DNA of 64,000 bases, from assembly GCA_964442455.1 (NCBI GenBank), contig CAYTZB010000001.1:85910-149909 (forward strand), given 5' to 3'. Positions 27,022-34,951 of the stretch are shown here, piece by piece. The position numbers and the translations under genes were made by a program. Position 1 is the first letter of the stretch; the number at the start of each line of letters is the position of its first letter. The notes under the pieces were generated by a model. The model was given only the letters and a program-made list of their open reading frames with translations, ran no database searches and was not told the origin of the DNA. Origin of the DNA: an uncultured Gammaproteobacteria bacterium. GTDB lineage: Bacteria > Patescibacteriota > Microgenomatia > UBA8517 > JACQJR01.

Positions 27022-28794
27022 ATGATCGCTGAACGTCAAGAAAATAAAGCCGTTCAATTGAACGGTCGAGATTGGTTATCCCCTGAGGTTGATGATATTG
27101 CACGTCAAGCAATTAGAGATATGGTGCCGCAGAGATCTGAGGATGGTAATGGTTTGCATTCACAGGAAGAGTTAAATAATGCATTATCAATTTCTTCCTT
27201 TCGTAGAAATGGTCTCCTTGGAATGTTACATATAAAATTTGATGGCGATATTGAGCAAGCTTTAAGATTTGCATATCCTGAGATTTTTAGAAAACCACTT
27301 TTACATCTTGATGAACCTCATTATGGTGATCCTTTTCAAGAAACATGGAGGGAAAGAGAACGCGAAATTGAAGGCAGAATAATATCGACGATGGAAAGGA
27401 GTAGGTTAGGTCATATCTATTTCTACGATAATGAAGTTATTGATAGTGATCAAAAAGCAAGGAAACTTATGAAATTGGGTAGACGGGTCGAGCGCCATGT
27501 AAACCGAAGAAATACCCGTGAACGTCATCACGAAAAAATAGACGTTGACGAATGGCAGGGAAGAGAAAATGAAGATTTTCAAAGAGCAATAGTTCGTTTT
27601 CTAAAACTTGGTGATAGCGTCGCAGGTTTTCTCGGCAGCAACGATACTGAAATTCCACGTTCTATTTTAAATCGAATTGGACAACAAGGAGTATTTTATA
27701 TGATAGGTCGCAGAAATTATCCTTATAACGAACTCGCCGGTTCATTTCCTAACGCAAATAATAGAGGAATCGAGGACGAACTTTTAGCAAGAGCTCTTGA
27801 GTTGGGAGAGTCTTTAATATTGAACAACTACGATCAAGAACAAATAAAAAAAACACTTAACGGTCATAAAATCTATCCAGTTGTCTACAGACCTCCCAAT
27901 CTTCCTGAAGAAATTTCTCGACATTCTTTAAATGCTTTCATTGTGAGCGATCGAGTAAGGGAAATTTTGGAAGAATTTAGGGAAGATTTCCTATGGGCAA
28001 TAGATTCAGCTTTAAAACAAGGTGGATATTTAATTTTTCGAGAAAACGCCAGGCAACAGACAAATATTGAGTACTATGGCCAAGATCTTTGGTCTAGCAG
28101 ATATCAAAGAGTAGGGACGGGAACGAAATCGGCCCAATTAATGATTTTTCGTAAAGTTGCTACAGGTAATTCTATGGTTAGTATTTCTCAAACAGTTTCA
28201 GAAAGTTCTCAATCGACTGAAAATGAAGAGGAATTTGGAGTGTGTACTATTGAACATAAGTGGGAATTTGAAAACGGAGAAGGGGCTGATAAGCAAATTT
28301 ACGCAGCACTTAAGCATGTTATTGAACAAAAACATAGATTAAACGGGGAAGTTACAGAAGCTCAACAGATAGACGAGTTACTAAAAGGAACGTTGAGCGT
28401 AAGTTGGTTTAGGAAAACTGGGCTTTTGCCAATCTTATTTAGTCGGTTTGGCGGAAGTGTTGAAAAAGCAGCGGAGTTTGTTATAGAACATAACCAAGCA
28501 GGAAGAACTCCTCCAACTATTATCCAAAGATCTCCTGAAGGGGCAAAATCCTCTTATAATCTCTACGATCTTGCCAAAGAATTGGGAGTTAGGATAGATG
28601 TTATTAGAAAAACTCTAAATAATGCTGGTATAAAAGGAGTACAGTCACAAAGAAATAAAGGGAATTTTCACCCCCAAACAAGTAGAATGCAATTTTCTTA
28701 TCAGGAGTTTTTAACATTAAGAGATGTATTACGGAGGGATTTAAATGTAGAAAAGGCTACCAAGGAAAGGAGCGATAATGCAGAGAGAATTTGA
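27022..28794 (+). CDS. hypothetical protein (590 aa) with two copies of a WF[RQ]K-GLL ... FA[YW]PE-F repeat module
   Basis: Long ORF. Its repeats SSFRRNGLLGMLHIKFDGDIEQALRFAYPEIF and SWFRKTGLLPILFSRFGGSVEKAAEFV are shared with the N-terminus of the following giant protein. The C-terminus is HTH-like. Confidence 0.65.
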   Translation: MIAERQENKAVQLNGRDWLSPEVDDIARQAIRDMVPQRSEDGNGLHSQEELNNALSISSFRRNGLLGMLHIKFDGDIEQALRFAYPEIFRKPLLHLDEPHYGDPFQETWREREREIEGRIISTMERSRLGHIYFYDNEVIDSDQKARKLMKLGRRVERHVNRRNTRERHHEKIDVDEWQGRENEDFQRAIVRFLKLGDSVAGFLGSNDTEIPRSILNRIGQQGVFYMIGRRNYPYNELAGSFPNANNRGIEDELLARALELGESLILNNYDQEQIKKTLNGHKIYPVVYRPPNLPEEISRHSLNAFIVSDRVREILEEFREDFLWAIDSALKQGGYLIFRENARQQTNIEYYGQDLWSSRYQRVGTGTKSAQLMIFRKVATGNSMVSISQTVSESSQSTENEEEFGVCTIEHKWEFENGEGADKQIYAALKHVIEQKHRLNGEVTEAQQIDELLKGTLSVSWFRKTGLLPILFSRFGGSVEKAAEFVIEHNQAGRTPPTIIQRSPEGAKSSYNLYDLAKELGVRIDVIRKTLNNAGIKGVQSQRNKGNFHPQTSRMQFSYQEFLTLRDVLRRDLNVEKATKERSDNAERI

Positions 28795-34700: not shown

Positions 34701-34951
34701 ATCAGCCAATCAGCAGAATTAGAAATTCTAAAGAAAGACTTGTCAAGACTCGCAGAATTGAGCCTAATCCAAAGTATGTTGACAAAGGAGCTAGTGCAGC
34801 TCTAGAGGAGTACTTATCAACACATCATGGTGATGAAATTAATTTATCAGAGTTTGCGCGCTCTATTGGTATTAGCCGCGAACGCGCAAGCCAACTCTAC
34901 AAGCGGTTAACCAATTCGCAGCTTAAGGAATTAATGACGCGGAGGAAGTAA
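28778..34951 (+). CDS. giant multidomain protein (2057 aa): N-terminal unknown region, SNF2-family ATPase/helicase, complete sigma-70 (regions 1.2, 2, 3, 4) and a C-terminal array of HTH repeats
   Basis: SNF2 motifs: [31 protein letters not shown], and helicase-C [11 protein letters not shown]. Sigma motifs: [61 protein letters not shown], and [38 protein letters not shown]. A strong RBS (GGAAAGGAG) sits 6 nt upstream, with a 17-nt overlap onto the preceding gene. Confidence 0.85.
   Translation: [2057 protein letters not shown]

Follow-up and report, generated by a model that had tools for sequence, protein, structure and literature searches.

A conserved fusion of an SNF2 ATPase to a sigma-70-family factor in an accessory gene cassette of candidate phyla radiation bacteria

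What lies between ftsA and ftsZ on contig CAYTZB010000001.1? We analyzed a stretch of 64,000 nucleotides (nt) of this contig (positions 85,910–149,909, forward strand), called the window below, whose own numbering is used throughout. The window comes from the metagenome-assembled genome of an uncultivated groundwater bacterium of the Patescibacteria and is ordinary chromosomal DNA, with a dcw cluster, aminoacyl-tRNA synthetase genes, and BipA. Its ftsA and ftsZ genes are separated by an accessory island that holds three genes, here called A, B, and C. The middle one, gene B, is the subject of this study: it encodes a single protein in which an SNF2 ATPase core, a sigma-70 module, and an array of helix-turn-helix (HTH) units are fused. 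The features of the locus are as follows.

26880..26918, + strand: left copy of an imperfect 39-nt direct repeat, a diverged copy of the ftsZ promoter-like box
26919..36433, no strand: accessory island of 9.5 kb, cassette A-B-C between ftsA and ftsZ
27022..28794, + strand: gene A, 590 residues; half Nrep copy, methyltransferase-like segment, full Nrep copy, HTH-like C terminus
28778..34951, + strand: gene B, SNF2-sigma70-HTH array fusion protein, 2057 residues
34996..36351, + strand: gene C, 451 residues, directly downstream of gene B
36395..36433, + strand: right copy of the 39-nt direct repeat, with the ftsZ promoter-like box TTGACA-17-CACAAT

Gene B is one open reading frame (ORF) of 2057 residues at 28778–34951 on the plus strand, intact from its ATG start and free of internal stops and frameshifts. 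An earlier note on this DNA, made from the letters alone, had described such an uninterrupted frame with a four-part architecture. Both statements hold, all the motif strings it quoted are present in the translation, and Pfam places SNF2-rel_dom, Helicase_C, and sigma-70 regions 1.2, 2, 3, and 4 in one polypeptide, with regions 3 and 1.2 marginal. The protein can be divided as follows.

28850..29152, + strand, residues 25–125: Nrep domain; AlphaFold2 (AF2) predicted local distance difference test (pLDDT) score about 70–88
29153..30457, + strand, residues 126–560: Nmid, a predicted helical N-terminal domain, family-specific and always accompanying this SNF2 clade
30458..32002, + strand, residues 561–1075: SNF2 ATPase core, two RecA-like lobes; motif I GTGKT
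32003..32167, + strand, residues 1076–1130: linker, basic and proline-rich, little conserved
32168..33112, + strand, residues 1131–1445: sigma-70 module with regions 1.2, 2.1–2.4, 3.0–3.2, and 4.1–4.2, without region 1.1
33113..33877, + strand, residues 1446–1700: post-sigma region with two to three region-4-like HTH units
33878..34948, + strand, residues 1701–2057: array of six sigma-4/LuxR-like HTH units

The two lobes of the ATPase are matched by SNF2-rel_dom (residues 588–729; 59.2 bits vs. a cut-off of 24.9) and Helicase_C (residues 886–1008; 29.0 vs. 23.5 bits), and the sigma module by Sigma70_r2 (residues 1208–1271; 65.9 vs. 24 bits) and Sigma70_r4 (residues 1390–1438; 83.2 vs. 24.1 bits). 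Two further models score slightly under their cut-offs, Sigma70_r3 (residues 1286–1363; 23.8 vs. 25.3 bits) and Sigma70_r1_2 (residues 1136–1154; 16.7 vs. 22 bits). Alignment to solved SigA structures covers both of these regions at the level of single residues (E = 2e-52 for the module from 1.2 to 4.2), and Sigma70_r1_2 reaches 35.1 bits in the homologous protein P0023. Sigma70_r1_1 gave no Pfam match in gene B at E ≤ 0.1; the usual position of region 1.1 is taken by the SNF2 module and the basic linker. The sigma module is about 40–48% identical to ordinary sigma factors, and it is embedded in a much larger protein, with an extension of 1130 residues before it and one of 600 residues, bearing 8–9 extra HTH units, behind it.

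As the earlier note had said, the N-terminal part belongs to no known family: its ~560 residues match nothing in Pfam or NCBIfam. Its first domain, Nrep (~90 residues), has four residues (C34, H38, H62, and H68) that are invariant in the three closest homologues of gene B. They form a C-x3-H...H-x5-H pattern that recurs in the protein of the upstream gene A (gene B residues 34–68, 28877–28981; gene A residues 408–438, 28243–28335). The pattern is possibly a zinc site, and it differs from the H-x3-C-x2-C motif found in anti-sigma factors that bind zinc. At the other end of the protein, a hidden Markov model (HMM) iterated on the C-terminal units detects six significant repeats (residues 1730–1771, 1789–1823, 1828–1864, 1893–1935, 1957–1992, and 2011–2054; E = 1e-8 to 2e-14) and also matches sigma region 4.2 of gene B itself. 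Two to three additional region-4-like units lie upstream at about residues 1577–1710, in agreement with the at least six extra region-4/LuxR-like repeats claimed before. The equivalent units in homologue P0062 have strong Pfam matches to Sigma70_r4_2, GerE, and HTH_24, and the copy number of the unit, counted with the repeat HMM, ranges from 2 to 9 across homologues.

How widespread is this architecture? We searched 1.84 billion cluster representatives exhaustively with HMMER, using gene B residues 558–1460 as the query, and found ~21 clusters (50% identity; 1183–2158 residues) in which the SNF2 and sigma parts are matched in a single colinear stretch. Further members of the fusion family were found in metagenome-assembled genomes (MAGs) of Candidatus Gottesmanbacteria and Woesebacteria, both of the Microgenomates group of Patescibacteria, in three third-party annotation (TPA) MAGs, and on a 765-kb metagenome contig, so that the search for the same architecture in related genomes that the earlier note had proposed was productive. 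A scan of genome contigs with a three-sequence alignment of the N-terminal part gave no match; one with a broader SNF2 alignment found members. All loci of the fusion family have a GC content of 37–41%, and the family is drawn wholly from low-GC DNA of the kind seen in the candidate phyla radiation (CPR). Three TPA MAG contigs, L009 (CAZCNP010000001.1), L010 (CAYRKM010000002.1), and L013 (CAZFJW010000023.1), are labelled "uncultured Gammaproteobacteria," an unconfirmed label; their GC content of 38–39% and their gene content resemble those of the CPR loci.

The same data speak to the integrity of gene B. A separate Logan assembly of SRR12113420 contains a 9634-nt contig that is 100% identical to window positions 26845–36478. 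Two full-length homologues of gene B, at 44–47% identity, carry the parts in identical order, and the N terminus and the SNF2/sigma junction are conserved across homologues. Because of the identical separate assembly and the unbroken matches from SNF2 through sigma in ~21 diverged clusters, a chimeric join, for which the earlier note had asked that assemblies be checked, is excluded. Gene B encodes a true single polypeptide, one that selection has maintained.

Are both halves of the fusion intact? The SNF2 core has the N-lobe and the Helicase_C lobe with motifs I–VI, and motifs I (GxGKT), II (DExHN), III (TxTP), V (AGE..TL), and VI (Q...RxHRxGQ) show either no variation or conservation of at least 90% among 26 members. 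Such motifs predict a DNA-dependent ATPase that would translocate on double-stranded DNA (dsDNA). On the sigma side, regions 2 and 4 and, in addition, 1.2 and 3 identify a member of the sigma-70 family with a predicted function to match. We counted the conservation of individual sigma residues (Escherichia coli numbering) in 21 fused homologues. Equivalents of the core-binding residues D403 and Q406 occur in all 21 and that of E407 in 18; those of Y430, W434, and Q437 occur in 19 of the 21, that of R441 in 17, and that of H455 in 15; among the residues that read the −35 element, equivalents of R584, E585, and R586 are kept in 19/21 and those of R588 and Q589 in 20/21. The window protein itself keeps the equivalents of all thirteen (D403, Q406, E407, Y430, W434, Q437, R441, H455, R584, E585, R586, R588, and Q589). 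Thus, both halves look functional. The segment that joins them, from the helicase C-lobe to region 1.2, is 55–130 residues long in the 21 fused homologues, variable in sequence and weakly conserved, as expected of a flexible tether.

The two halves also occur apart. The Nmid-SNF2 clade is found without sigma in proteins P0030–34 and at locus L013, and sigma factors that lack SNF2 and carry the same post-sigma segment and HTH array include P0038, P0062, P0072, P0078, and P0096. The first ~30–50 residues of the post-sigma region of gene B are likewise present in such SNF2-less factors. One of them, P0038 (locus L007), is preceded by a gene A homologue whose stop abuts its start; the conserved core is therefore gene A plus a sigma-array gene, with the SNF2 module fused into the latter. 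The existence of separate SNF2-only and sigma-only forms is a Rosetta-stone indication that the motor and the sigma factor act together. The SNF2-less CPR sigma factors share the post-sigma segment, the type of HTH repeat and, in P0038, gene A with gene B; they lack its Nmid-SNF2 module, and they appear to be equally undescribed. P0062 (1333 residues) and P0078 (1260 residues) each consist of a sigma factor followed by 8–9 LuxR/sigma-4-like HTH units, and the same HMMER search returned P0104, a 3581-residue protein with two sigma-like modules. A neighbor-joining tree of 142 sigma modules was star-like, neither grouping nor splitting the fused sigmas, and was not used.

Gene B is the middle gene of a conserved cassette, A-B-C. 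Homologues of gene A lie directly upstream of gene B homologues at loci L002, L003, L009, L012, L080, and L083, and homologues of gene C directly downstream at L002, L003, L009, L010, L012, L081, and L083. In the window, the end of gene A and the start of gene B share 17 nt, and several lineages likewise show a gene A stop that overlaps or abuts the gene B start. Neither A nor C has a match in Pfam, PHROG, PADLOC, or NCBIfam; a protein homologue search with gene A gave a single homologue, and gene C has no match in the PDB. Gene A contains a segment, LKxGGYLIFRENA, that resembles the LKPGG motif region of class-I methyltransferases, and its sub-threshold PDB matches to S-adenosylmethionine-dependent methyltransferases (E = 0.5–2.5) all fall on one segment, so it possibly carries a methyltransferase-like core. 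The AF2 model of gene A, built on a two-sequence alignment, has a pLDDT of 38 and is not usable.

The cassette occupies a variable site. In relative L004, whose flanks are ~90% identical at the nucleotide level and whose FtsZ is 97% identical, ftsZ follows 76 nt after ftsA; in relative L005, also ~90% identical in the flanks, the spacer holds a Nudix-like ORF of 170 residues (spacers compared: window 26810–26918, L004 11269–11344, and L005 9099–9653). Neither relative has any trace of A, B, or C. The ftsA-ftsZ spacer is therefore an insertion hotspot, empty in L004, with a Nudix-like ORF in L005, and with the 9.5-kb cassette in the window, and the earlier placement of gene B in an inserted block between ftsA and ftsZ is borne out. 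The island is strain-variable and compositionally foreign: its GC is 0.399 vs. 0.427, its GC at third codon positions is 0.25–0.30 vs. 0.36–0.44 in the flanking genes, and its tetranucleotide distance is 0.20 vs. 0.109 ± 0.019 for other 9.5-kb windows. The two copies of the 39-nt repeat that border it are 79% identical and spaced by 9515 nt; positions 36402–36438, which overlap the right copy, are 100% identical to L004 11293–11329; in L004, as in L005, the repeat is present once. A promoter and terminator scan of the island did not rise above shuffled expectation, and promoter candidates upstream of genes A and C are tentative.

Elsewhere the cassette has different neighbors in every genome examined. 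Those seen include G6PD/6PGD with a major facilitator superfamily (MFS) transporter, a pseudouridine synthase with a large serine recombinase (in L009, the recombinase lying 2 kb downstream of the cassette), a type I HsdR protein (L016), and Fic and PIN proteins (L081). The cassette itself is free of recombinase, replication, and structural genes. IMG/VR viral contigs did not yield the family, two scans giving generic SNF2 proteins (21–24% identity) or nothing, and neither did PLSDB plasmids, which gave generic SNF2 matches only (22–27% identity); short contigs that carry the cassette show neither a circular signature nor a terminal overlap. Four independent Logan contigs, L001, L002, L003, and L080 (8.3–9.6 kb), end at or just outside the cassette, as would be expected if a mixture of occupied and empty sites, or of different contexts, in the populations made the assembly graphs branch there.

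Is gene B a primary sigma factor, as the earlier label "primary-like" could suggest? It shares with group 1/2 sigma-70 factors (RpoD/SigA, RpoS, and cyanobacterial group 2) the order of regions 1.2, 2, 3, and 4 and the conserved determinants for core binding and for the −10 and −35 elements, and it differs from them in lacking region 1.1, in its SNF2 and HTH extensions, and in its location on an accessory island. The label is not supported in the housekeeping sense: there is no region 1.1, the RpoD scores are too low, and the gene lies on a strain-variable, foreign island. The RpoD equivalog models score 220 vs. a cut-off of 555 (NF004208) and 217 vs. 354 (TIGR02393, RpoD_Cterm), TIGR02997 scores 241 vs. 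384.5, and the gene B sigma stays below every NCBIfam equivalog cut-off, including those of the RpoD, RpoS, and SigA models. Nor is gene B a core syntenic sigma gene, being absent at this site in L004 and L005. No canonical rpoD lies within the 64-kb window.

The term "RapA-like," also used in the earlier note for the ATPase, had to be given up. The NCBIfam RapA model (NF003426) scores 28.8 bits vs. a cut-off of 576 and matches only around motif II. The best solved relatives of the SNF2 core in the PDB are the eukaryotic HELLS, DDM1, and ISWI, with E = 4e-12 or weaker, and RapA is absent from its PDB matches at E ≤ 1e-3. A RapA-type N-terminal domain was not found either; that of gene B is predicted to be helical and has no RapA-like match. 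RapA/HepA of E. coli is an SNF2 ATPase associated with RNA polymerase (RNAP), a separate protein whose N-terminal domains bind core or elongation complexes (PMC8501970). Gene B resembles it as a bacterial SNF2-family ATPase at the polymerase, an association that in its case is presumed to run via sigma, and differs in that the motor is covalently joined to sigma and the N-terminal fold is another.

What might such a protein do? We favor, with moderate confidence, the reading that gene B encodes, in CPR bacteria of the Microgenomates type, an accessory initiation factor of the sigma-70 family in which region 1.1 has been replaced by a tethered SNF2 dsDNA translocase. A module of ~1100 residues (Nrep, the helical domain, and a catalytically intact SNF2 core) would stand in place of the acidic region 1.1, tied to region 1.2 through the flexible linker. 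The sigma module would dock on the RNAP core via regions 2–4 and read canonical-type −35 and −10 elements, while the HTH array may add DNA contacts that select or stabilize a subset of sites. The DNA channel is where region 1.1 lies in ordinary holoenzymes; a motor in the place of this region would be positioned to act on DNA next to the polymerase. There, the tethered motor would hydrolyze ATP on duplex DNA beside the holoenzyme. It could remove or rearrange proteins bound to the DNA, or shift the DNA in either direction relative to the polymerase, and ATP would in this way assist initiation, escape, or release at target sites. Protein A, which is translationally coupled and shares Nrep, and protein C would be dedicated partners, the three genes traveling together as a horizontally mobile cassette. 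The idea of the earlier note, a sigma factor that carries its own ATP-driven remodeling or recycling activity, is compatible with this reading and is favored here in its general form.

A bolder version would couple sigma-70-type initiation mechanically to ATP hydrolysis. By the classical account, sigma-70-type initiation needs no ATP, and it serves as the textbook example of a promoter melted without it. In the bolder version, the SNF2 translocase would sit at the entrance of the DNA channel and drive open-complex formation or promoter escape, pumping or twisting promoter-proximal duplex DNA or stripping bound proteins from it; targeting and control would fall to the HTH array and to proteins A and C. 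An ATPase is likewise coupled to promoter recognition in sigma-54 with its AAA+ enhancer-binding proteins and in TFIIH with XPB/Ssl2, a functional analogy only, as these ATPases are separate proteins without homology to gene B. We consider this version doubtful.

Several observations weigh against an accessory initiation factor with a built-in motor. The flexible linker leaves the position of the motor on the holoenzyme unfixed. T440, which contacts position −12, is replaced by N in gene B and varies in the family, as do Y425 and W433, so the reading of the −12/−10 element may differ in detail from that of sigma-70. That SNF2 and sigma also occur alone shows no strict dependence of either half on the other. 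Finally, the cassette lies in variable regions beside genes of defense or toxin type (a ResIII/PbeA-like helicase here, HsdR in L016, and Fic and PIN in L081), and such neighbors suit a conflict system no less than a transcription regulator.

The main rival, possible though in our judgment unlikely, is an anti-phage or anti-mobile-element module. Its sigma part would dock on or sequester the host RNAP or an invader-modified one, or sense invader promoters, and its SNF2 part would act on invader DNA. Besides those neighbors, which here include a protein resembling type IV restriction enzymes, the strain-variable, compositionally foreign island in an insertion hotspot suits such a role, and there is a precedent in MzaA, the RpoD-like sigma of the validated defense system mzaABCDE (PMC9523054). 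MzaA is the top NCBIfam and PADLOC match of gene B, and like it is an RpoD-like sigma with a long N-terminal extension in an accessory system. However, the match reaches only 243 bits vs. a cut-off of 800 and covers only profile positions 470–705 of 726, the generic sigma part; the MzaA matches give no sign of an SNF2 domain, no mzaB–E genes lie nearby, and genes A and C have no PADLOC match, so a system-level match is lacking. SNF2 ATPases also serve in Zorya (ZorD) and DISARM (DrmD), and gene B resembles these and the phage SNF2 helicases of phrog_62 at the superfamily level. The scores are weak (38.6 vs. a cut-off of 1500 for ZorD; E = 0.002 for DrmD), and gene B comes with no Mrr-like nuclease and none of the partner genes. 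No nuclease, protease, NADase, or other effector domain was detected in the cassette, and its neighborhoods are heterogeneous and include housekeeping genes (G6PD/6PGD and the pseudouridine synthase).

Two further explanations are less likely than defense. The cassette could derive from an integrative element or phage, as its remnant or as cargo, with a sigma that redirects the host RNAP to the genes of the element. The island features would suit this, as would the serine recombinase near the cassette in L009 and the best PHROG matches of gene B, which are to a family of sigma factors (phrog_351, E = 1.6e-60) and one of SNF2 helicases (phrog_62, E = 7e-44), both from phages. But genes for a recombinase, replication, or structural proteins are missing from the cassette, IMG/VR and PLSDB did not yield the family, the short contigs lack a circular signature, and the three genes offer nothing obvious for a redirected polymerase to transcribe; we judge a take-over sigma improbable. 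Equally improbable, in our estimate, is recycling of the RapA type, in which the SNF2 part would free or reactivate stalled or post-termination RNAP and sigma would provide proximity only. Both proteins are bacterial SNF2 ATPases associated with RNAP, and a tether guarantees proximity, but homology is limited to the generic SNF2 core and the predicted helical N-terminal domain of gene B matches nothing. Moreover, sigma leaves RNAP or loosens its grip after escape, while RapA acts on core or elongation complexes. Last, an artefact, whether a chimeric assembly or a sequencing frameshift joining two adjacent genes, is suggested by nothing beyond the unusual size of the protein and the origin of the sequence in a MAG and, given the identical second assembly, the colinear fusion in diverged clusters and several MAGs, and the conserved N terminus and junction, has next to no credibility.

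Some other features deserve mention. The ResIII/PbeA-like helicase (37761–40514) is a 917-residue ResIII/Helicase_C protein with PADLOC matches to PbeA and to type IV methyl-directed restriction enzymes, and, compared with L004, it is a second insertion of low GC (0.374), placed immediately behind ftsZ. Beyond it, two small genes (40572–41147, minus strand; 41230–41883, plus strand) stand in the opposite order to that in L004, without an inversion. A 590-residue ORF downstream of ftsZ in L004 was considered as a displaced gene A and rejected, as it is a fragment of an isoleucyl-type tRNA synthetase. The mechanical ORF list starts ftsZ at a TTG (36491), probably in error; in relatives the gene opens with the ATG at 36593 (MALVKPD). 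An AT-rich intergenic element of ~110–150 nt occurs at 13808–13925, 36440–36590, and L005 2205–2312, immediately upstream of the start codons of a Mur ligase gene, ftsZ, and mraY (in L005), respectively. It consists of tandem AATTAACCT (2–3 copies), a conserved AAATTGGGATTTATTTAG core, and tandem AATTAGA (3–4 copies), and the copy before ftsZ is absent at that site from L004 and L005. The element could be a repeat resembling miniature inverted-repeat transposable elements, or a shared leader or regulatory module.

How new is the fusion? Its sequences are present in public databases; full-text literature searches found no paper that describes an SNF2-sigma fusion, in keeping with the earlier view that the architecture is non-standard. 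In a survey of jumbo phages, SNF2 helicases and sigma factors are discussed as distinct genes only (PMC7824862). Gene B is a sigma-70-family factor with an unprecedented motor fusion, part of an undescribed accessory cassette of CPR bacteria that brings two new domains, Nrep and the helical Nmid.

In bacteria, SNF2 motors that contact RNA polymerase, RapA among them, are proteins of their own whose role is still debated; to our knowledge, the transcription machinery of CPR bacteria is almost unstudied. If the module were a defense system, it would be of a new type that uses a sigma factor to dock on the polymerase. If initiation were coupled to ATP hydrolysis, gene B would be a bacterial counterpart, in a single polypeptide, of TFIIH-XPB or of sigma-54 and its AAA+ activator, and conceptually new. 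The conserved covalent fusion argues strongly, on comparative grounds, that a DNA motor can work together with promoter recognition in one machine, and it offers a defined protein with which to probe ATP-assisted initiation or sigma-directed DNA remodeling in bacteria.

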